DNA from: Thermoproteota archaeon
Lineage (GTDB): Archaea; Korarchaeota; Korarchaeia; Korarchaeales; JAOZGB01
Reading direction: 5' to 3'
Length of the DNA: 64,000 nucleotides
NCBI GenBank assembly: GCA_037917685.1
Contig: JAVCBU010000003.1
Coordinates: forward strand, 225,309-289,308
The position numbers were made by a program, and so were the translations under genes. The notes below the pieces were generated by a model. That model ran no database searches. It was not told the DNA's origin and saw only the letters and a list, made by a program, of their open reading frames with translations. This document shows, piece by piece, positions 4,442 to 14,210 of the stretch (position 1 is the stretch's first letter; each line of letters starts with the position of its first letter).

Positions 4442-6115
4442 TTACTCTTTCAATCTCTTATACGCTTTTACAGCGTCGTAGGCCACTATTGCGCCTAAGA
4501 TGAATAGGACCAGGCCTACTATTCCGAATATCCCGTTTAGAGTTAAAGCTACCGTTGGATAGTTTGCGAGGCTTCCCTTCACTATGGGTGTTCCGAGTTT
4601 TATCGCGCGGAAGAACCCTGCAGATTCAAAGATTAAGGCAGCTTCACATGTTATTATCATAAATAGCGCTGGCGCCAATGTGTATATTGTTGGTCTCTTA
4701 GTCTTAGCTAGGAAGATTGTTACGAGGGTTAGCGCCAGGCCTGCTAGTAGCTGGTTTGAACCACCGAACAACAGCCACAGGTTTATCCATGCCCCTGTGT
4801 ATGCGAATATATCAGCTATTATTAGCCCTATCAATGCCCCCACATACTTGTTCCCGAGAACTCCTCCTCCCACCATGTCTCCCCAGACAAGCCAGAAGAA
4901 TCTCACAGCTATTATCCCTATCGTTATGGCGTATAGCTCAAGCCACATGGCGTAGAATGCTTTAATCCATGCAACCCCGGCTCCACCCGGTGCTATAAGC
5001 TTTGCTGCCCCTGCTACGAGGCTTTCCCATTTTACTCCTCCAAGTGTCTTTATTTCATCGGGTGTTAGAACCATATACGCCGCTAGGGATGCCAGGGCGA
5101 GTAATCCCTCTGTAAGCATTGCTCCTGCCCCTACTGGCAGAGCGTCGGTTTCAACATCTAGCTGGGTTGCTGATCCTGAGGTTGATACCAGGCTATGCCA
5201 TCCTGAAATCGCACCACAAGCTATTGACACTGTTAGGATCGGCCAAATAGGCCCCGGGTTCCAGAAGTTACCGGTTGTCCCGAGTATTCCCCCCCATGCT
5301 GTCTGCTCGATCTTAACTCCTGTTACCGGTGAGATCAGGGCCGCCAGGATTAGGAGTATGATTCCGAATATTGCTGGGTATGATGCCACGTATACTACTG
5401 GCTGGGCGAAATACATTAACGGTGCAACTGCGCCGATAAACAGTATTATACTTGTAAATATCATCCAGAAGGTTAGGTTTGCGTACTCTATCGGGTATAG
5501 CTTGCCCAGGATTATGCCTATTATGGTTATGATTAGTCCTATGGCTGTAGATGTCCCTATTCCCATTTTTACTTTAAACATCAGTACCCCGCTTGCTATT
5601 CCCCCTATAATCAGGAATATGATTGATAGCACTGAGACCGGGTATGTTTTGAAGAATACGCTGCACAGGACTGCGAAAACCGCTATTATTAGGATCAGGT
5701 AGAAGAATAGGAATCCCATGAGCATCTTTCTTGCCCTTGGGCTTATATACTCGTAGGTTAGCGGCCCCATCGTTTTACCTTCATTCCTGACAGACATGAA
5801 GAGGGATGAGTAGTCATGGATCCATCCTATGAAAAAGTTTCCAAGTAGTATCCAGATGAGGGCTGGAACCCAGCCGTAGAATAATGCGATAAAGGGTCCT
5901 AGTATCGGTCCTAGGCCTGCGATGCCTTTAAACTGGAATCCGTACAGTACGTACCTGCTTACAGGGAAAAATGTTATTCCATCCATGTACATGTGGGCTG
6001 GAGTGGCCTTCTCGGGGTCGGGCTTCCAGACATTTTTGTCGTACCACTTTGCGTAGAGCTTGTACGCCGCGGCGTATACTACTAGACCTAGAACTACGAA
6101 CCAGAATGGATACAT
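4442..6115 (-). CDS. cstA: Carbon starvation CstA-family transporter
   Basis: TPAH...DG...P, IAGLGPILGP, HDYSSLFMSVRNEG, SIACGAISGWHSL, GAMLTEG and LWLLFGGSNQLLA motifs; polytopic. Confidence 0.93.
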   Translation of the reverse strand: MYPFWFVVLGLVVYAAAYKLYAKWYDKNVWKPDPEKATPAHMYMDGITFFPVSRYVLYGFQFKGIAGLGPILGPFIALFYGWVPALIWILLGNFFIGWIHDYSSLFMSVRNEGKTMGPLTYEYISPRARKMLMGFLFFYLILIIAVFAVLCSVFFKTYPVSVLSIIFLIIGGIASGVLMFKVKMGIGTSTAIGLIITIIGIILGKLYPIEYANLTFWMIFTSIILFIGAVAPLMYFAQPVVYVASYPAIFGIILLILAALISPVTGVKIEQTAWGGILGTTGNFWNPGPIWPILTVSIACGAISGWHSLVSTSGSATQLDVETDALPVGAGAMLTEGLLALASLAAYMVLTPDEIKTLGGVKWESLVAGAAKLIAPGGAGVAWIKAFYAMWLELYAITIGIIAVRFFWLVWGDMVGGGVLGNKYVGALIGLIIADIFAYTGAWINLWLLFGGSNQLLAGLALTLVTIFLAKTKRPTIYTLAPALFMIITCEAALIFESAGFFRAIKLGTPIVKGSLANYPTVALTLNGIFGIVGLVLFILGAIVAYDAVKAYKRLKE

Positions 6116-6154
6116 GTCGGGTCTTATACTAAGTGCCGTATTAGCTTTTAAAAT

Positions 6155-6784
6155 TTGCCGATAGCTTTAAGGATTGTGGGACTTGGGGTCCTTATAGTTT
6201 TCACTCTGACGGCTGTGATGCTTATATCCTACTTCTACGGTAGACATGTGAACTATTCGCTTCAAAGAGGTTACTGGAAGGTCCTATCAGGGGTTGTTAA
6301 ATCGTATTCCAAGAAGGTTAGCTATAGAAGTCTCGGTTCTTCGATGTTTCAAGTTTCATTCCCTTGCAATCCGCCGTTAAAAAGGGTTGAGATAACAGTT
6401 CTACTTATGGATAGAGAATTCTTAACCCATTACATAGCCTCAAGACTTATGGGGAGGAGTGACGAGTTTATTCTCAAGGCTTCTTTCAGTAAAGACCCAG
6501 ACTTCACCTTTCAGATAGGCGGAAAGGCAAAGGGAATGGACAGGCTTGAGCCTGGCTGGGTTGGCTTTGAGGTTTATACTGATAATAAAGCTAGAGCCAT
6601 AAGGCTTCTAGGAGATAACGAGTTTAGGAGAACTATTAGGAGACTTAAAGGCAGAATTAACCTTCTTGTTATAGGTGAAGGGGTGCCAAACATTCTGGTT
6701 AGGTGCAAAGCCGAATCTGAAGTGGCAAGGCTTATGCTTAGGCTTGCGGAGAGAGCCTCCCACCTAGTGGCATCTAAGGTTTGA
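6155..6784 (+). CDS. Single-TM membrane protein, CCDC47/DUF1682-like
   Basis: N-terminal TM followed by YFYGRHVNYSL..GYW and ITVLLMDREFL..IASRL..RSDEFILK. Resembles CCDC47 as recalled from memory; not searched. Confidence 0.55.
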   Translation: MPIALRIVGLGVLIVFTLTAVMLISYFYGRHVNYSLQRGYWKVLSGVVKSYSKKVSYRSLGSSMFQVSFPCNPPLKRVEITVLLMDREFLTHYIASRLMGRSDEFILKASFSKDPDFTFQIGGKAKGMDRLEPGWVGFEVYTDNKARAIRLLGDNEFRRTIRRLKGRINLLVIGEGVPNILVRCKAESEVARLMLRLAERASHLVASKV

Positions 6785-7267
6785 AAGGATTCCAATAAAA
6801 TTTTCTGCTTCTTCAACTGACATGTCTCCCTCAGCTACTATATCTATTCTTCTAGCCGTCTCCTTGCACATGAATGCTACCTCTATTTTAGTCCATCTTA
6901 TCATGTCTCCAAGTAAGAGGTACTTCCTCCTTCCAGCTTTTTTAATAGAGTACCCTGCGTTGTGGCCGTTAATCTTCACAAACCCTGACCTAACAGAATT
7001 TCTGGAAGCCTTAGCCACCCATCTATCCAGGTTAAAACCTAGGATGGGTTCCCTGACCGTTATCTTTACGGCTAAAGGCTTTTCACCCCTTATAATATTG
7101 AGTGTAATGTAGCCCGATGCAACCCACCTATCTCCACCTGTCTCTCTCACGAGTTCAACATCTATATAGCCTGCAGGCCTAATCTGCCATTCTTCAGGTA
7201 GGAGGATACTTACGAACCTTACCTCTCCAAGGATTGGATTTTTGGCGTCGATGTTAGCTTTCTGCAT
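6764..7267 (-). CDS. Hypothetical soluble protein ending in ...LRCH
   Basis: 167-aa ORF with normal codon usage, inside the cstA-arsA cluster; AT-rich divergent promoter at ~7283-7300. Confidence 0.7.
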   Translation of the reverse strand: MQKANIDAKNPILGEVRFVSILLPEEWQIRPAGYIDVELVRETGGDRWVASGYITLNIIRGEKPLAVKITVREPILGFNLDRWVAKASRNSVRSGFVKINGHNAGYSIKKAGRRKYLLLGDMIRWTKIEVAFMCKETARRIDIVAEGDMSVEEAENFIGILSNLRCH

Positions 7268-7335
7268 TCAATATGGGCATCCTAAATTAAATATTAAAAG
7301 TGTGATGTGCCCAGAATACTCTGGCTTGAAAAGGT

Positions 7336-7590
7336 ATGCTCAGAAGGTTTAAATCAATATTAAGGGATTTCTTCTACGGCTTTGCCGTTCTAACTCCAGT
7401 TAAGTCTCTCAAGAAGGCTAAATTCATAGAGGACTCTGCAATGATGATTGTTGCCCTGGGCGACATGCTTGGTATACCATTTGCGCCGCCGATTTACAAG
7501 CTTAGAATTTTGCCATACTTTATTCCAATGGTCGGATTATGGAAGGAGTACATTTTAAAGGAGAAAGATATAGTGGAGAAGCTCGAATAG
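7336..7590 (+). CDS. Small CstA/ArsA-associated hydrophobic protein, paralog 1 (cory-CC-star-like)
   Basis: FFYG...MMIVALGDMLGIP..PP.Y.L..LPY...W...EKDI; clear paralog of 7654..7941. Confidence 0.75.
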   Translation: MLRRFKSILRDFFYGFAVLTPVKSLKKAKFIEDSAMMIVALGDMLGIPFAPPIYKLRILPYFIPMVGLWKEYILKEKDIVEKLE

Positions 7591-7653
7591 AAGCTGAAAA
7601 TTACAAACTTTTTTAAGCGGTGCTTTCCCCAACTATTAAGTGGTGATTGCAAG

Positions 7654-7941
7654 GTGTTATTCAAAAGGAAAAAGAAGGAGGAGGGGTCTGGAGAGGAGGT
7701 TAAGGAGGCTATAAAAGGAGTTTTCTATGGTATGGCTTCGCATCAAATGGTTAGATACATGCTTAAGACAAGGATGTACCTTGAGCATCTCTTCATGTTG
7801 ATAACCCTCGGCGACATGTTGGGGATACCGATACTTCCTCCTTACTATTCTCTAAAGCTTTTGCCCTATGCCCTACCTAATATTGAAAGTTGGAAGAGGA
7901 GGCTTTTCAAGGAGAGAGACATAACAGACATGCTTTATTAG
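7654..7941 (+). CDS. Small CstA/ArsA-associated hydrophobic protein, paralog 2 (cory-CC-star-like)
   Basis: VFYG...LEHLFMLITLGDMLGIPILPPYYSLKLLPY...W...ERDI. Confidence 0.78.
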   Translation: MLFKRKKKEEGSGEEVKEAIKGVFYGMASHQMVRYMLKTRMYLEHLFMLITLGDMLGIPILPPYYSLKLLPYALPNIESWKRRLFKERDITDMLY

Positions 7942-7950
7942 GGGATAGGT

Positions 7951-8955
7951 ATGCCCGTATCCCTACCCGAATTTCTTAGAGAAAACCCGGACATTAAGAT
8001 AATAGTCTATGCAGGCAAGGGGGGCCTAGGAAAAACCACCTGTAGTGCCGCAACAGCCTACTGGTTCGCCAAGCAGGGGAGAAAGCCCCTATGCTTTAGT
8101 ACAGATCCCCAGGCTTCCCTAAGCGACATATTTGAAAGAGATATCTTTGGGAAAGGCGTCGTGGAAATCATACCCAACCTCTACGTTGTAGAGATAGACG
8201 CTGACCGGAGAATCTCCGAGTTCCAGGATGAGATCAGAAAGCAGATAAAGGAGATGTACGGGTTAGAAGAGGTTCCGGGGGAGATTGAAGAGTATATCAA
8301 GACGTCTGCCTATGAGCCCGCGATGCATGAATCTGCAACCTATGATGCAATGGCAGACCTAGTCGCTAGTGGGAAGTATAATCCCTATATTTTCGACATG
8401 CCGCCCTTCGGCCACGGGGTTAGGATGATCTCAATGGCTCAGATACTTGACGCATGGATTGACAAGATGGAAGAGACCAGGAAGAAGGCTGCCGAATATG
8501 CTGCAGCAGCTGCTAAGCTTAGGGGAATCTCATCTGAAACCGAGGACGCTGTTATAAGGGAGCTTACATCTATTAGGGAAAAGCTTGACTTCTTCAGGGA
8601 CATGCTCACAAATGAGAGAACCTGCGCGTTCTTCATGGTTCTAATACCAGAAAAAATGGCTATACTCGACACCAAGAGGGCTCTAGAAATGTTTAGGAAG
8701 CTTAAAATAAGGCTTAGCGGTGTGATTGTCAACCAGGTTTACCCTCCAGAACTACTTGAAAGGAGAGACATAACCGACTTTCTAAGGAGAAGAATTGAAA
8801 TGCAACAGAGATATATGAAGGTTATTAACAGGGAGCTCGGGGAGTACGTCAGGGCTGTAATACCAATGTTCGACAGGGAGCCGAAGGGGATAGATATGAT
8901 TGCAAAGGTTGCCGAGCACATGTTTGAAAAGCCAGGTTTGGAGGTGTTTGAGTAG
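7951..8955 (+). CDS. ArsA/Get3/TRC40-family ATPase, canonical subunit
   Basis: P-loop GKGGLGKTT, switch I STDPQASL, switch II DMPPFGH, PEKM and IVNQV motifs. Confidence 0.93.
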   Translation: MPVSLPEFLRENPDIKIIVYAGKGGLGKTTCSAATAYWFAKQGRKPLCFSTDPQASLSDIFERDIFGKGVVEIIPNLYVVEIDADRRISEFQDEIRKQIKEMYGLEEVPGEIEEYIKTSAYEPAMHESATYDAMADLVASGKYNPYIFDMPPFGHGVRMISMAQILDAWIDKMEETRKKAAEYAAAAAKLRGISSETEDAVIRELTSIREKLDFFRDMLTNERTCAFFMVLIPEKMAILDTKRALEMFRKLKIRLSGVIVNQVYPPELLERRDITDFLRRRIEMQQRYMKVINRELGEYVRAVIPMFDREPKGIDMIAKVAEHMFEKPGLEVFE

Positions 8956-9971
8956 TGTCAGGCCATGTAACCTTTAAGATGTTTATCGAGCAAAACCCCA
9001 CGGTTAAATACCTCTTTACGGGGGGCAAAGGAGGGGTTGGAAAGACCATAGTGGCTGCTGGTATAGCCGCCTATTTTGCCGAAACCGGGAGAAAGACTCT
9101 TATAGCATCCCTTAACCCGGTACACTCCCTTTCAAGCCTTTTTGAGCAAGACCTCTCCGGGGGAGTTATAAAGGAAGTCTCAGGCATCGACAACCTATAT
9201 GCGATTGAAGTCGACATCACAGACAGGGTTAGAAGGTATAAAGAACAGCTTACCGAGAGGCTAAGATGGTTCCTAAAGTGGGCTGACATCTCTGTAAAGG
9301 CCGACGAGTTCATAGAGATAGCTTCAACTAACCCAGCATTTGAGGAGAGCGCCATGTTCGACGAAACCATAGATATAATGCTCAGAGAGGGTAAAAACTT
9401 TGACAAGATAGTTTTCGACTGCGCGGCCGTCGCAAACGCTGTGAGGCTTCTAGGACTTAACAAGATATATGGAATGTGGCTTAAGAGGATGATTAAGAGC
9501 AGGAAAGAAGCTTTGTCCCTAAGGGTTAAACTCTCATTCAGGAAGGATAAGGTTATGGAGGAGATAAAGAAAGACCCAATGATGGCGGATCTAATAGAGA
9601 TGAACAGGAAGATAACAGAGGCGTCAGGCATCTTCGGGAATCCCAAGCAAACAGCATTCTTCTTCGTAACTCTACCATTATCTCTCCCAATCTCCGTGGT
9701 TGAGAGGTTTATAAGGATGGTTCAAGGTTTCAACATAGCAGTAGGCGGGGTTATAGTAAACGGAGTGCTTAGGAGGGAGCTTGCTGAGAAGGGAACAGAA
9801 TATCTTAAGAATAAATATGAGGAGCAGAGAAGATACATGGAGATCATAAGAGAGAAAATGTGGCCTATGGTTAGAGCTGTAATACCGCTTTATGAGACCG
9901 AAATAGTCGGTGTAAGAATGGTTAAAAGAATCGCCAGCGATCTGGCATCCTGGACTCCAGAGAAGATGTAG
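8955..9971 (+). CDS. ArsA/Get3/TRC40-family ATPase, degenerate subunit
   Basis: P-loop GKGGVGKT is intact but switch I is SLNPVHSL and switch II is DCAAVAN. GTG start overlaps the upstream TAG by 1 nt. Confidence 0.9.
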   Translation: MSGHVTFKMFIEQNPTVKYLFTGGKGGVGKTIVAAGIAAYFAETGRKTLIASLNPVHSLSSLFEQDLSGGVIKEVSGIDNLYAIEVDITDRVRRYKEQLTERLRWFLKWADISVKADEFIEIASTNPAFEESAMFDETIDIMLREGKNFDKIVFDCAAVANAVRLLGLNKIYGMWLKRMIKSRKEALSLRVKLSFRKDKVMEEIKKDPMMADLIEMNRKITEASGIFGNPKQTAFFFVTLPLSLPISVVERFIRMVQGFNIAVGGVIVNGVLRRELAEKGTEYLKNKYEEQRRYMEIIREKMWPMVRAVIPLYETEIVGVRMVKRIASDLASWTPEKM

Positions 9972-10111
9972 AGCGTAGACATGCAATATTTCACGTTCCT
10001 AAACCCTATTTCTACACACAAAGGTAACAGGTAATTTAACAATACATCTTCACCTCCTAGGAGGTGAGAATCTATTTAGGATAGAATCCACTATTTAACT
10101 TTCATGGTTAT

Positions 10112-11083
10112 ATGAACTCCGGGAAAATTCTCGTCGCCGGCGCCGGACCTGCAGGTCTTAGCTGTGCCTACAATGCCTCTATAAAAGGCTATAAAGTCCA
10201 CCTTTTAGAGAAGAGAGGCACCCTAGCCTACAAGCCTTGCGGCGGGGCCGTACCTGAAGAGGCTTTTAAATACATCCCATTCGCGGGCAAAAAGTTTATA
10301 CTGAATCGTATAGTTAGATGTAGGCTTACTATCCGCTGGAAGACTGTTAAGATTATTGAGGGTGAAACCTCCGGCTATATTATAGATAAGAGAACCCTCC
10401 TGGAAGAGCTATTATGCGCCGCGGAAGCTGAGGGGTGTAAGGTAAGCCTGAACAAGAGGGCAAAACCGTCCATGGCAGAGGACTACGACCTGGTAGTTGA
10501 CGCTACAGGGCATGAGAGGGCTCTAGCCCTACAGATGGGTGTAGACTACTCGGGTTACAAGCTTATACCAGCCTGCCAGCTATACTGTAGGGGGCAGGGT
10601 CCTGATGAAGATGAGATTTGGGTTGAAATAGTAGCCTACGGCTACCTCTGGGTGTTCCCACATGGAGGCGTATACAATGCTGGGATAGGAGGCTTCTCAA
10701 GTCCAACCATCCTAAGAAGGATACTCCTGTCGAGGCTTGAGGAGGCCGGTTTAAAACCACTGTCGAAGCCGAGATTTTCAGCCTTGTCTGTTGGAGGCGT
10801 TATAAAAACATTGAAGGCCGGAAGACTTATAATTATTGGGGAAGCCGCAGGCATGGTTATGCCATCGGTCGGTGAGGGGATAAGATATGCTCTTTACTCA
10901 GGGAAGATATGCCTCCGAGACTACCGTGAGAGATGGGAGGCGGAATACGGTTCCAGGTTTAGAAAGGCTCAAATGCTTCTAAAAATGCTACTATTAATGC
11001 CTGGGAGAATGAGGGTTAAAGCGATGAAGTACATGCCCATCCCGATACTAAAACTTTTCTACCAGGGAGCCCTCTCCAGCTAG
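10112..11083 (+). CDS. Geranylgeranyl reductase-family FAD oxidoreductase
   Basis: GAGPAG Rossmann motif, KPCGG, GYLWVFP and GEAAGMV.P..GEGI. Confidence 0.88.
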   Translation: MNSGKILVAGAGPAGLSCAYNASIKGYKVHLLEKRGTLAYKPCGGAVPEEAFKYIPFAGKKFILNRIVRCRLTIRWKTVKIIEGETSGYIIDKRTLLEELLCAAEAEGCKVSLNKRAKPSMAEDYDLVVDATGHERALALQMGVDYSGYKLIPACQLYCRGQGPDEDEIWVEIVAYGYLWVFPHGGVYNAGIGGFSSPTILRRILLSRLEEAGLKPLSKPRFSALSVGGVIKTLKAGRLIIIGEAAGMVMPSVGEGIRYALYSGKICLRDYRERWEAEYGSRFRKAQMLLKMLLLMPGRMRVKAMKYMPIPILKLFYQGALSS

Positions 11084-11174
11084 CATGTTCCAAATTTTAA
11101 ACCTGTTCCAGATAGTTTTATTTTTGGTTCATATGGTAAATTCTAATATGAAATCAGCGTACAATAATGTTAAA

Positions 11175-13337
11175 ATGAAATTTACGGTCTATGATGCCAT
11201 CGCAGCTATCATAGTCATAGCCCATCTCTCACTATTAACAATGGGAAGTGCCGGGCTCCCGACAGGTTGGGATACACCGTACCATCTTCTAATGGGGAAA
11301 ATGTACGCTGACTACGGTAGGGTTACTCTGTGGGACTACTACGAGTACGCCCCTGTTGGGAGGCCCCAGGTCTATCCGCCGCTCCTCCACGTTATAATTT
11401 GGTGGGTGCACAGCCTTACAGGGGTGGGCTACATATCGATCGGCAGGTTCTTTGCAGTAGTCCAGTTCCCCCTGGCTCTGCTTTCAATATACTATTATGT
11501 AAGAAGAATATTCGGGTGCCCCGAAGCCCTGTACAGCCTTATAACCCTCTCGTCTATTTCCATGTTTTGGATGTGGGAGGTAACCGTTGCCCCGACTGCG
11601 GTGCTTGTGATACTTTTCCCCGCATTCCTGTACTACTTTTACAAGAAAAGCCTCATACCCTCAACCCTGATACTTGTATGTGCATTTTACATGCATCTGG
11701 GGATGCCCATCGTATTTGTAGCTTCAGCCATCATGATAAGCCTGCTTGCTGCAGCTAAGAAAGTTGGATACTGGAGCTTCCTAGCAAAGTGTTTAGGGAT
11801 AGCCCTGCTTTTGTATCTACCATGGCTTATCCACGTATTAAAGAACCTTGAATACATACACGCCAGAATGATGGTCCACGGGTTCCAAGGTATAGCTTTA
11901 GGTTTCATTGCTGGAAACCTGGTATACCTGGTGTTAACGTTCGCAGGCCTTATAATTTCAATAGTAGAATATGGGAGGGGAACCCTAAAGTATCTTGTCC
12001 CGATAGCTGGCTTCATAGGGTTCCTTCCGACGTTCTCCTACGGGGCAAGATACTTCCTCCACTCACCTGTTGCAAACTCTATCCTTGCAGGAATAGCCGC
12101 TGCATGGGCTGTTAGAAAAGCTAGGCGGAGGCTTGCAGGGTGGGAGGGGAAAGCCCTAGCTGCAGCGATAATAATGGTGGTCTCCCTTCAGGCCGTGTGC
12201 GAGCCAACCCTAGGCTTAAGAAGGCCTTTCCAGAAGACGCCGAGACATCAGGGTAAGCGTTGCTCTTCACCCCTTCTGTCAGAGATTATGATGGCAAGTG
12301 GCGCTATGCCAAGCGACCCTTGGAGATTCTCATGTTCAGACCCGGATCTGCTAGCCCTCTCCGACTGGATAAGGGAGAACATCCCCGAGGATGAAATCCT
12401 CCACGTAAACATGGGGGCTGTAGCAGCTTATATCACACTAACCACAGGCAGGCTGACAGACAGCGGAATGTACGGTGAGGTTAGAACAGAGGAGATGATG
12501 GCCGCGATACATCAGGGTAGGAAGTCCGGGATATTCGTCTTCACTCCCTACGGGCCAGGAGGCAGGAGGATACCGGCAAACCTACATGGTAAGGAGCTCT
12601 TCCAGTCAGGCCCATACAAGGTTATAGAGATCTACCAGCCTGAACATGCAGACCTGACCTTGCTTAAAGGAAAGGTAAATATAAGCTGGGTATCCATAGC
12701 GGCAGGAAAGCCTGGGGATCTTGAAAACGCTAAAACACTACTTGAACAGCTGAACTATAAGTCAGTCGTAGTAGTGGTTCCCCAGGACAGGGTCAACAAG
12801 AGAAACCTACGCTTTATATCCGAAGTTTTCCAAGGGTACAATCTCGCCATGGAAATATTCGTCACAGACTGGGGCACCCTCCAAGACGTGTTAAGCCAGG
12901 TGAAGGCCAGCGGTATATCTAAAGTCATCCTATTAGTAACCCAGGACACACTCCCAGCCGGGGACCCAGCACAGGCTAGGGAAATGGTGGAAAGCGTGGG
13001 AGTTCAGATTTACTACTCAATAGCTGGACCGCCCCTTGTCGACCCAGGATGGGACAGGCCTAGACTAAGAAGCTTTCTTGAAGGGGGAAACGTTATAGTA
13101 CATATTCCAGCGCTTCCTGTCCTCGCTGATATTCTTGAGGCGGACCTGCAGGTCCTCGGCGATTGGGACTGTAACATCAAGGTTCAGGTGGACCTTGTTA
13201 AGGACAAGCCCCTAAGGGAAGATGTTCTGGCAAATACCCTAAGCCAGGCTTCCTGGTTCGACGTGGAATTAGGGGTAGGTATACCTGGAGACATGCTGTA
13301 TCAAGCCCTGGACATGATAAGCATTCTGCTAGGGTAG
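11175..13337 (+). CDS. GT-C superfamily (AglB/STT3/ArnT-like) membrane glycosyltransferase with large C-terminal extracellular domain
   Basis: GWDTPYH and GRPQVYPPLLH loop motifs, ~11 TM segments, then DWIRENIP. Start placed at ATG 11175. Confidence 0.7.
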   Translation: MKFTVYDAIAAIIVIAHLSLLTMGSAGLPTGWDTPYHLLMGKMYADYGRVTLWDYYEYAPVGRPQVYPPLLHVIIWWVHSLTGVGYISIGRFFAVVQFPLALLSIYYYVRRIFGCPEALYSLITLSSISMFWMWEVTVAPTAVLVILFPAFLYYFYKKSLIPSTLILVCAFYMHLGMPIVFVASAIMISLLAAAKKVGYWSFLAKCLGIALLLYLPWLIHVLKNLEYIHARMMVHGFQGIALGFIAGNLVYLVLTFAGLIISIVEYGRGTLKYLVPIAGFIGFLPTFSYGARYFLHSPVANSILAGIAAAWAVRKARRRLAGWEGKALAAAIIMVVSLQAVCEPTLGLRRPFQKTPRHQGKRCSSPLLSEIMMASGAMPSDPWRFSCSDPDLLALSDWIRENIPEDEILHVNMGAVAAYITLTTGRLTDSGMYGEVRTEEMMAAIHQGRKSGIFVFTPYGPGGRRIPANLHGKELFQSGPYKVIEIYQPEHADLTLLKGKVNISWVSIAAGKPGDLENAKTLLEQLNYKSVVVVVPQDRVNKRNLRFISEVFQGYNLAMEIFVTDWGTLQDVLSQVKASGISKVILLVTQDTLPAGDPAQAREMVESVGVQIYYSIAGPPLVDPGWDRPRLRSFLEGGNVIVHIPALPVLADILEADLQVLGDWDCNIKVQVDLVKDKPLREDVLANTLSQASWFDVELGVGIPGDMLYQALDMISILLG

Positions 13338-13343
13338 CCAGCG

Positions 13344-14210
13344 ATGATAACCACAATAATACTTGCAGGTGGGCTTAGCAGAAGGTTCAATCTTAGAGAC
13401 AAGCTTACATATAAGTTGGAAGGAAAAACCCTGATAGAGCACACCGTAGAAGCCGCGTCCGAGATTTCCGACGAGATAGTGGTCACCGTAGACAACAGTA
13501 GAAGACTGGAGAAGTACAAGGGAATCCTAGGCATGCATGATGTTACCTTCGCAGTAGACGACTCCTCAAAGGAGAGGACACCCATGAGGGGCATAATAGC
13601 GGGGGTTAAAGCCTCCCAAGGAGACGCCATAATAGTAATCCCGGGGGATGCTGTCCATATTAAAGGGGAAACACTGAGGCAACTTGTGGAGCCTTTAAAA
13701 CACGGCTTTAAGGCTGTATCACCGATTGCTCCCAACGGCGATGTTGAAACCCTTTTCCAAGCTGTCGATGCAGGAGAAGCCAGGGTAAACGCTGACCTGC
13801 TTGGCAGGTACGGGTGGAGAAGAGCTGACGGACTGCTCAGGCTATCGGAGAGTCAGTTATACATAGCCTTCGAGGACTACTGCCAGTTTAAAACGATTAA
13901 CAAGCCTGAAGACTTGAAAGCAGCGGATAACCCGCCCCCTCCCCTAGGCGAATCATATGTGAAAGCCGTGCAGAAGGAGAGGAGAATAAGCATCTCAGAC
14001 GTGGAACCTGATCTCTACTGGGTTGAAAAGCTCGTTGAACATGGAGAATACTTCCTAGCAGGAGTGCTCTCTATGGTGATACTTGGGGAGGCCGTAGCCC
14101 CGGGGGTTGAAGCATTTCGGAGAGAAGCTGCAAGATACTTAGACGCAGGCATAATAATGTTCGTGAGGCACGCCCTAAAAGATGCACTCTGGCTTCAAAG
14201 ACAGGTTTAA
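13344..14210 (+). CDS. MobA-like NTP transferase
   Basis: ILAGGLSRRF...DK, P..GI..G, PGD and INKPEDL motifs. Confidence 0.8.
   Translation: MITTIILAGGLSRRFNLRDKLTYKLEGKTLIEHTVEAASEISDEIVVTVDNSRRLEKYKGILGMHDVTFAVDDSSKERTPMRGIIAGVKASQGDAIIVIPGDAVHIKGETLRQLVEPLKHGFKAVSPIAPNGDVETLFQAVDAGEARVNADLLGRYGWRRADGLLRLSESQLYIAFEDYCQFKTINKPEDLKAADNPPPPLGESYVKAVQKERRISISDVEPDLYWVEKLVEHGEYFLAGVLSMVILGEAVAPGVEAFRREAARYLDAGIIMFVRHALKDALWLQRQV

Follow-up and report, generated by a model that had tools for sequence, protein, structure and literature searches.

Introduction

Get3 and ArsA are textbook examples of symmetric or near-symmetric dimeric ATPases, and the need for both of their sites has usually been studied with engineered mutants. 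In Escherichia coli ArsA, a fused A1–A2 pseudo-dimer that drives the carrier ArsB, the homologous halves face each other and the sites are non-equivalent. Carriers of the CstA family, for their part, have been studied as proton symporters. The present analysis concerns two adjacent genes of the ArsA/Get3 family, encoding proteins referred to as subunit 1 and subunit 2, at positions 7951–9971 of a 64,000-nucleotide stretch of DNA from a Thermoproteota archaeon (GenBank assembly GCA_037917685.1, contig JAVCBU010000003.1, positions 225,309 to 289,308 of the forward strand). The whole of this stretch is called the window. Subunit 2 has lost the catalytic aspartate of switch I, and this loss is conserved across archaea and bacteria.

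Proteins of the Get3/ArsA family are described as dimerizing around two ATP molecules in the relevant passages of two papers (PMC10248533, PMC12506534). In the account of yeast Get3 given in the second of these, the D57N variant binds ATP and closes but does not hydrolyze the nucleotide (PMC12506534), and a first-pass annotation made from the letters of the window had likewise given binding without hydrolysis. In 2010 Castillo and Saier, comparing genomes, described a cluster of cstA, cstX and arsA genes (PMC2963123, clusters 14–18). According to the passages on these clusters, ArsA homologs of about 330 residues occur with CstA, CstX has about 90 residues and is duplicated in some archaea, and CstY, of about 210 residues, occurs in five archaea. 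Adjacent ArsA pairs are given for two organisms in cluster 15, with identities of 31% and 25%. The paired form is named for "Par" and "Sth", and Thermococcus kodakarensis is listed as a carrier of a cst cluster. The same passages state that in single-domain proteins the Asp of the SXD motif "can be substituted only by N", and draw no conclusion from it. Their authors proposed that ArsA energizes CstA with CstX as a linker, and suggested homodimers. They also describe Alkaliphilus metalliredigens, in which two half-size single-domain arsA genes work with Acr3 (PMC2963123). The relevant passages of a paper on Get3d phylogeny do not mention the clade to which the pair belongs (PMC10248533).

Beyond Castillo and Saier, no literature treatment of the CstA-linked ArsA pair was found, nor any literature on DUF7990, cory-CC-star or PF25952. 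Likewise, neither experimental work on the cst cluster nor a pseudo-ATPase reading was found in print, although subscription and other PMC articles may hold more. The cluster itself has thus been published, whereas no publication of the conserved one-dead-site design was found in the literature searched.

Sequence features of the gene pair

Subunit 1 (7951–8955, forward strand) has 334 residues and an ATG start, and subunit 2 (8955–9971, forward strand) has 338 residues and a GTG start. The TAG stop of the first gene (8953–8955) and the GTG start of the second (8955–8957) share base 8955, giving an overlap of 1 nucleotide. A Shine–Dalgarno-like word, GGAGGTG (8940–8946, forward strand), lies within the 3' end of the subunit-1 gene, 8 nucleotides upstream of this GTG. 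Both proteins are full-length members of the TRC40/GET3/ArsA superfamily, with profile scores above the curated cut-offs (PF02374, 225.3 bits for subunit 1 and 190.8 bits for subunit 2, cut-off 24.3; TIGR00345, 212.5 and 196 bits, cut-off 135). They are 30% identical to each other across 328 residues.

Each protein has a deviant Walker A motif with the signature lysine, GKGGLGKT in subunit 1 and GKGGVGKT in subunit 2. The catalytic set of subunit 1 is complete and comprises Lys23, Lys28, Asp52, Asp149, Gly154–His155 and Asn261. Its switch-I residue Asp52 (codon GAT, 8104–8106, forward strand) lies within STDPQASL and matches the Asp of STDPAHS in the alignment with 3zq6, while switch II reads DMPPFGH in the sequence (8395–8415, forward strand). 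In subunit 2 the P-loop is intact (GGKGGVGKT) and both switches are degenerate: Asn54 (codon AAC, 9114–9116, forward strand), within SLNPVHSL, replaces the catalytic Asp of switch I, and DCAAVAN (9417–9437, forward strand) stands in place of the canonical switch II, DTAPTGH. The best solved relatives of both subunits are the archaeal Get3-type structures 3zq6 and 3ug6, to whose STDPAHSL and DTAPTGH segments the switch I and switch II stretches of both subunits align.

Neither subunit contains a CxxC zinc clasp, both sequences having been examined, and the CEFC/CDFC of archaeal Get3 aligns to the Cys-free segments ITDFL in subunit 1 and TEYL in subunit 2. Methionine makes up 6.7% of residues 96–230 in subunit 1 and 5.9% in subunit 2, compared with 4.0% and 3.9% in the remainder of each protein. 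In a 24-sequence alignment, subunit 2 shows a highly conserved helical segment that is rich in Lys and Arg and not hydrophobic.

All that the first-pass annotation had described in this region was found in it. The coordinates of the pair, the TAGTG overlap and the family assignment were borne out by the open reading frames (ORFs), the sequence and both profiles. The switch motifs of both subunits, the P-loop of subunit 2 and its AAC codon were all confirmed in the sequence, and the lack of a zinc clasp was confirmed by the sequence and by the alignments with 3zq6 and 3ug6. Its description of the helical regions as Met-rich holds in direction, although the enrichment is only mild.

Conservation of the degenerate site

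A scan of species-representative genomes gave 80 loci, of which 48 (L009–L056) belong to the family of the pair, with 44–71% identity to subunit 2. Archaeal carriers include Bathyarchaeia, Caldarchaeales, Thermoproteales (Pyrobaculum among them) and Methanoperedens, and bacterial carriers include Chloroflexota, Thermodesulfobacteriota, Acidobacteriota, Actinomycetota, Myxococcota, Gemmatimonadota, Pseudomonadota and others. Motifs were counted in the 44 loci with both proteins, including the window. Asn54 of subunit 2 is present in 44 of 44, as is Ala160 in place of the switch-II Gly; residue 161 is Asn in 41 and His in the remaining three. All 44 loci also have Lys25, Lys30, Thr31, Asp155 and Asn269 in subunit 2. 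The same is true of Asp52, Gly154, His155 and Asn261 of subunit 1, and Lys23 is present in 42, both exceptions being ORFs with uncertain starts. Across these loci, a catalytic residue has been lost from subunit 2 while its nucleotide-binding residues and overall sequence have been kept.

Because Asn54 was found in all 44 paired loci of archaea and bacteria, it is neither decay nor a sequencing error. Moreover, the mean pairwise identity of subunit 2 (0.606) is close to that of subunit 1 (0.624), which indicates that subunit 2 is not drifting or decaying. Most bacterial orthologs of subunit 2 read DTAPTAN in switch II, so Gly to Ala and His to Asn are the changes common to the family; DCAAVAN has two more, Pro to Ala and Thr to Val, which are confined to the subclade of the window.

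The closest database homologs of subunit 2, taken as the best 120 of 7,993 matches (60–100% identity), come from Bathyarchaeia, Baldrarchaeia, Thermofilum, "Geothermarchaeota", Anaerolineae and Bacillota. Among these best 120, the P-loop is present in all, S[L]NPVHS in 118 and D[CT]AAVAN in 117. In the 24-sequence alignment, Asn54 and Ala157–Asn161 are invariant. A profile search of 1.84 billion cluster representatives returned Asn in every high-scoring single-domain match with a readable motif, and the first match of the subunit-1 type (P0200, STDPQAS/DMPPFGH) had a far lower score.

The first-pass annotation had allowed that orthologs might retain Asp, with the Asn then a local decay or an error; the 44 paired loci show Asn throughout. 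The conservation of the N and AN motifs on which its reading depended is upheld by the counts for Asn (44 of 44) and Ala (44 of 44), by the 118 of the 120 closest matches and by the single Asn clade described below. The loss of the switch-II Gly–His that it reported is complete for Gly and nearly so for His, which three loci retain.

Pairing of the two genes

Both genes are complete, adjacent and on the same strand in 43 of the 48 family loci. In the remaining five (L012, L015, L017, L049 and L056), the sequence ends at or before the position of the partner. Every one of the 43 loci in which both positions are covered has both genes. The estimated intergenic distances range from overlaps to gaps of about 140 nucleotides, with many 4-nucleotide overlaps in the ORF table. 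Prediction of a complex of subunit 1, subunit 2, the neighboring small protein CstX paralogue 2 and two ATP molecules, with CstX treated as the partner, gave a median score of 0.43, and a control in which subunit 2 was replaced scored 0.33; the prediction counts neither for nor against the complex.

Two longer matches were considered as fusions of the pair and rejected. P0121 is a subunit-2 ortholog to which a low-complexity read-through of about 320 residues is attached, and in P0122 the two genes run together in garbled form, with frameshift-like stretches. Both have the look of read-through or frameshifted calls made in assemblies that are GC-rich or prone to error.

Origin of the pair

A FastTree phylogeny was calculated from 127 ArsA-family rows, covering the 80 loci, the window and two paralogs from the source genome. 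The subunit-1 clade (47 rows) is sister to the subunit-2 clade (46 rows) with 99% support, and wherever the residue could be read it is Asp in the former and Asn in the latter. An IQ-TREE phylogeny of 48 chosen rows under a site-mixture model gave the same arrangement (15 rows for each subunit, 99%). In addition, it placed as the common sister of both subunits (98%) a clade of single ArsA proteins with the canonical motifs STDPAHS and DTAPTGH, from haloarchaea, Clostridia and others. Get3-type proteins of methanogens and Asgard archaea fall outside the pair and its sister clade. Among single-domain proteins, the Asn label requires one change on both trees, and the internal branching of the subunit-1 and subunit-2 clades is mirrored.

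The simplest history suggested by these trees would be an old single duplication of a CstA-linked homodimeric ATPase, followed by loss of the catalytic Asp and of the Gly of switch II from one copy. From then on both copies would have been retained together. The single canonical ArsA with CstX and CstA is probably the ancestral homodimeric form.

In the haloarchaeal loci L058, L063, L065–L069, L072, L081, L083 and L084, a single canonical ArsA is preceded by a CstX-like ORF and often followed by CstA, and the same arrangement occurs in the Clostridia loci L070, L074 and L085. The haloarchaea with this form include genetically tractable genera; L081 is from Haloferax mucosum, and H. volcanii gave a CstA match in a control search. 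Among the 32 loci outside the family, a CstX-like ORF is present in 17, CstA in 16 and both in 13.

The source genome carries two further full-length ArsA-family paralogs, both on long branches. One (L001, C22:14612–15508) has SSDPSPS in switch I and no DTAPTGH-like switch II by motif pattern. The other (L004, C1:62337–63230) sits in a 399-residue frame and has no switch-I motif by motif pattern.

Fused two-domain ArsA-like proteins of 525–660 residues form a lineage of their own (P0178, P0183, P0188, P0190, P0203, P0204 and P0206). Switch II of the N-terminal half is degenerate (D[TML]AAGAH) in the first five and was not found by motif pattern in P0204 and P0206; P0178 alone among the seven has Asn in switch I of that half. 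The C-terminal halves of all seven carry S[TVS]DPQxS and DTAPTGH. These proteins, P0178 for example, were rejected as fusions of the pair, since on a 72-row tree they lie elsewhere in the family, and they represent a parallel case. As this lineage is not close to the pair, the superfamily seems to have acquired one degenerate half-site on more than one occasion.

CstA, CstX and other neighboring genes

The pair lies beside a gene for a CstA-family transporter (4442–6115, reverse strand; 557 residues, PF02554, 324 bits), which is the sole CstA gene of the source genome. In 36 of the 48 family loci CstA was found within 4 kilobases of the pair, most often just upstream and on the same strand.

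Two small genes directly precede the pair. CstX paralogue 1 (7336–7590, forward strand, 84 residues) has a weak match to NF041419 and aligns with the CstX family. CstX paralogue 2 (7654–7941, forward strand, 95 residues) is DUF7990-like, with an ESM Atlas score to DUF7990 clusters of 0.97. CstX has no match in the Pfam set scanned and only a weak NCBIfam match (cory-CC-star). The two paralogues are 40% identical. At least one CstX homolog lies just upstream of the pair in 45 of the 48 family loci, the three others being cut at the contig end, and two or more copies are present in 32. Together with the CstA transporter, the small CstX proteins form the defining context of the pair, which had been missed at first pass.

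The AlphaFold2 model of CstX paralogue 2, obtained with a 46-row alignment (predicted local distance difference test 79), is a two-helix hairpin with helices at residues 12–52 and 63–94. The conserved motif GDxLGxPxLPPYY is predicted to lie in and just past the turn. A search of the model against the PDB gave no fold match at E ≤ 0.001. The hydrophobic stretch of CstX is borderline (Kyte–Doolittle 19-residue maximum 1.56–1.58); it contains a near-invariant Gly–Asp and several prolines at the hairpin turn, and about 25 charged residues come after it. Long ORFs whose C-terminus is CstX-like (L016, L037, L038 and L043) were set aside; they have no Pfam domain and are probably over-extended calls in GC-rich DNA.

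Two further genes lie between CstA and the CstX pair. The first encodes a CstY-like protein (6155–6784, forward strand) of 209 residues with a hydrophobic N-terminus and no Pfam family. Its size and single N-terminal hydrophobic stretch fit the CstY of about 210 residues and one transmembrane segment (TMS) mentioned in the cst passages (PMC2963123). Its TTG start lies 39 nucleotides from the divergent CstA start, so this start call may be wrong. The second encodes a conserved protein of 167 residues (6764–7267, reverse strand) without a Pfam family, which recurs with the cluster and whose nearest ESM Atlas clusters are archaeal hypothetical proteins. By BLASTP (E ≤ 1e-3), relatives of the CstY-like protein were found in nine of the 80 loci; those of the 167-residue protein were found in eight, and in several loci (L048, L028, L029, L050 and L051, for example) they start at most about 40 nucleotides past the ORF of subunit 2 or past the CstX ORF next downstream of it.

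Downstream of the pair (10112–13337, forward strand) lie a gene for a protein resembling oxidoreductases dependent on flavin adenine dinucleotide (323 residues) and a gene for a 750-residue membrane protein with a weak match to the glycosyltransferase family PMT_2. The former has a relative in two of the 80 loci and the latter in none. Being nearly absent from these loci, the two genes are probably unrelated to the module.

Proposed assembly and alternatives

Comparison of the loci establishes the motifs and how invariant they are, a single origin, constant pairing of the genes and their context. From these, the two proteins probably form a sandwich heterodimer in which one site works and the other is locked with ATP; this heterodimer would be the ATPase core of a conserved CstA-transporter module. 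The module would consist of CstA, one or two CstX hairpin proteins and the ArsA-like pair, sometimes with CstY and the protein of about 165 residues. Subunits 1 and 2 are predicted to associate as a nucleotide-sandwich heterodimer of the Get3/ArsA style, with two composite ATP sites. Site 1 would be competent: subunit 1 would contribute its P-loop, Asp52 and Gly154–His155, and subunit 2 its signature Lys25 in trans. Site 2 would be formed on subunit 2 by its P-loop, Asn54 and Ala160–Asn161 together with Lys23 of subunit 1, and would keep all of the nucleotide-binding residues. With Asn for Asp it would be without the water-activating carboxylate, and Ala would occupy the position of the Gly whose backbone senses the gamma-phosphate. 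Site 2 is thus envisaged as binding and retaining ATP, with subunit 2 acting as a permanent "ATP-state" half by which the dimer is held together or gated. Subunit 1 would be the cycling partner, in a conformational cycle powered by hydrolysis at site 1. In a weaker step of the proposal, this cycle may be relayed through CstX to CstA, either energizing or gating uptake, as ArsA does for ArsB, or assembling the transporter complex.

A locked ATP site is considered most likely because two independent changes are present and both are invariant. It is also favored by the invariance of the nucleotide-binding residues and by the conservation of subunit 2, which equals that of its partner. The first-pass annotation had proposed an obligate asymmetric heterodimer with one active and one regulatory site. 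The constant pairing (43 of 43 loci) supports a heterodimer with one degenerate site, as does the correlation between the pairwise identities of subunit 1 and those of subunit 2 (r = 0.971, 946 pairs), a value that is inflated because organismal descent is shared. The heterodimer with a dead site thus has good comparative support, while physical dimerization, loss of hydrolysis in subunit 2 and a regulatory role for it are inferences.

Besides the inflation of this correlation, several observations weigh against the heterodimer with a locked site and its coupling to CstA. No convincing fused protein of subunits 1 and 2 was present among 35 longer matches. Loss of hydrolysis in subunit 2 is an extrapolation from yeast Get3. 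CstA was not found in 12 of the 48 family loci, some of which have incomplete flanks, not all having been checked. The genes of the window are not one operon, since CstA and the 167-residue gene lie on the opposite strand. Finally, gene neighborhood is what suggests a role for CstX, and coupling of the pair to CstA is proposed from the neighborhood and the ArsA–ArsB precedent.

A bolder form of the proposal, in which a heterodimer with one live and one ATP-loaded site would make CstA, via CstX, an ATP-gated or ATP-driven uptake system of ancient origin in archaea and bacteria, is possible but rather doubtful at present. Energizing or gating of CstA through CstX is ranked above a Get3-like insertion function, because the clasp is missing, the CstX turn contains Pro and Asp, and the conserved helix of subunit 2 is basic. 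The pair may have a role in biogenesis, that is in insertion, which is rated below the energizing or gating of CstA.

Get3-like targeting, in which the pair would capture a hydrophobic client (CstX, CstY or helices of CstA) and deliver it to the membrane, is an unlikely explanation. The borderline hydrophobic stretch of CstX could serve as such a client, and CstX and CstY are termed single-TMS proteins in the cst passages (PMC2963123); yet this stretch, with its Gly–Asp and prolines, is predicted at the turn of a soluble-looking hairpin and is followed by a charged tail. Family membership, archaeal Get3 as the best solved relative and the mild Met enrichment of the helical region are in keeping with targeting, but both subunits lack the CxxC clasp, and subunit 2 is rich in Lys and Arg along its conserved helical segment. 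Moreover, the other ArsA-family paralogs of the source genome could perform general targeting. The Get3 framing of the first-pass annotation, understood as tail-anchor targeting, found no support in any tested feature.

Partner-completed active sites are known among dimeric P-loop nucleoside triphosphatases of this class. Subunit 2 might accordingly be alive, the missing catalytic group being supplied by another residue or by a partner (CstX or CstA), with turnover at both sites. In its favor, every nucleotide-binding residue of subunit 2 is invariant. This explanation is nonetheless improbable, given that the Asp-to-Asn and switch-II Gly-to-Ala changes are independent and both occur in 44 of 44 loci, and that the Asn change by itself blocks hydrolysis in the account of yeast Get3 (PMC12506534).

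More improbable still is a pair of separate homodimers, one an active dimer of subunit 1 and the other a non-hydrolyzing, ATP-sensing dimer of subunit 2. The genes are always adjacent and often overlap, the topologies of the two clades are mirrored, and no fully flanked locus among the 48 has one gene alone. These observations outweigh the homodimeric state of the solved single-domain relatives and the homodimers proposed for CstA-linked forms by Castillo and Saier (PMC2963123, cluster passages).

An arsenite pump ATPase (ArsA proper), suggested by the names "arsenite-transporting ATPase" or "arsenic transporter" that relatives carry in some databases, is very improbable: membership of the ArsA arsenical pump was rejected on the curated cut-off of TIGR04291 (88.0 bits for subunit 1 and 88.2 bits for subunit 2 against 650), the proteins are single-domain and not two fused halves, their conserved neighbors are CstA and CstX, no ars gene was found among the ORFs of 5000–14000 (eight Pfam-scanned; acr3, arsD and arsR were not searched for), the sole ArsB-family match of the source genome is on another contig (C19), and the cst passages state that ars and cst genes never occur in one operon (PMC2963123).

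Significance

A classic hydrolysis-blocking change is naturally fixed in one protomer and has been kept across at least a dozen phyla. The pair offers a ready-made system in which to ask what a locked ATP site contributes. If the assembly proposed above is correct, the pair would be a natural "D57N half-trap", and one hydrolyzing site would be enough for such motors. A dedicated ATPase pair with an adaptor beside CstA suggests ATP-dependent control or assembly of the carrier. Such control, if real, would be relevant to carbon scavenging in energy-limited anaerobes, and an ATP-gated or ATP-driven CstA would be a second, independent case of the ArsA–ArsB principle. The right family for the pair is that of the CstA-linked ArsA homologs, and the Get3 and arsenic labels are both misleading. 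Database names such as "arsenic transporter" are probably wrong for the proteins of the pair.

Comparison with known systems

In heterodimeric ATP-binding cassette transporters, the consensus site hydrolyzes ATP and the degenerate site binds it. The design logic is alike, but fold and family are unrelated and the likeness is one of analogy only.

Mycobacterial BagAB (Rv3679/Rv3680) is likewise encoded by two adjacent ArsA/Get3-like genes, and its products were solved together (6bs3, chains A and B). The match to the window proteins is weak, however, with E values of 5.5e-5 and 3.8e-4 to subunit 1 and of 3.4e-4, for chain A only, to subunit 2. Membership was rejected on the curated cut-offs of NF053622 (BagA) and NF053621 (BagB), which are 400 and 521 bits, as compared with 46.9 and 38.9 bits for subunit 1 and 42.1 and 26.2 bits for subunit 2. 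To our knowledge, BagAB has no CstA/CstX context. By description only, the Alkaliphilus metalliredigens pair resembles that of the window in combining two single-domain ATPases with a secondary carrier, but it is an arsenic system (PMC2963123, cluster passages).

E. coli ArsA is similar in being a soluble ATPase tied to a secondary carrier (PMC2963123). It differs in that both of its halves retain Asp and DTAPTGH (P0172 and P0193), in its metalloid-binding Cys triad and in its ars gene surroundings, and its TIGR04291 cut-off is not reached by the window pair. Compared with the Get3 targeting factor, subunit 2 is without the switch-I Asp and both subunits are without CxxC. The D57N variant of yeast Get3 is altered at the same position of the same motif (STDPAH) as Asn54 of subunit 2. 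That variant is engineered and alters both protomers of a homodimer with a zinc clasp and tail-anchored clients; in the window pair the change is natural and confined to one protomer, switch II is also degenerate and the context is that of a transporter.

The closest likeness is to the cst clusters of Castillo and Saier. The window has the same gene set, with ATPases of about 330 residues beside duplicated CstX proteins of about 90 residues, a CstY-like protein of about 210 residues and CstA, and its pair is adjacent and 30% identical, as compared with 25–31% in cluster 15. The passages on these clusters present a genome comparison without experiments or a reading of the Asn, and suggest homodimers (PMC2963123). 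New relative to the 2010 paper are the invariance of the Asn and of the Ala-for-Gly replacement, the single origin of the degenerate subunit, and the sister relation of the pair to a canonical single-ArsA clade with CstX and CstA.

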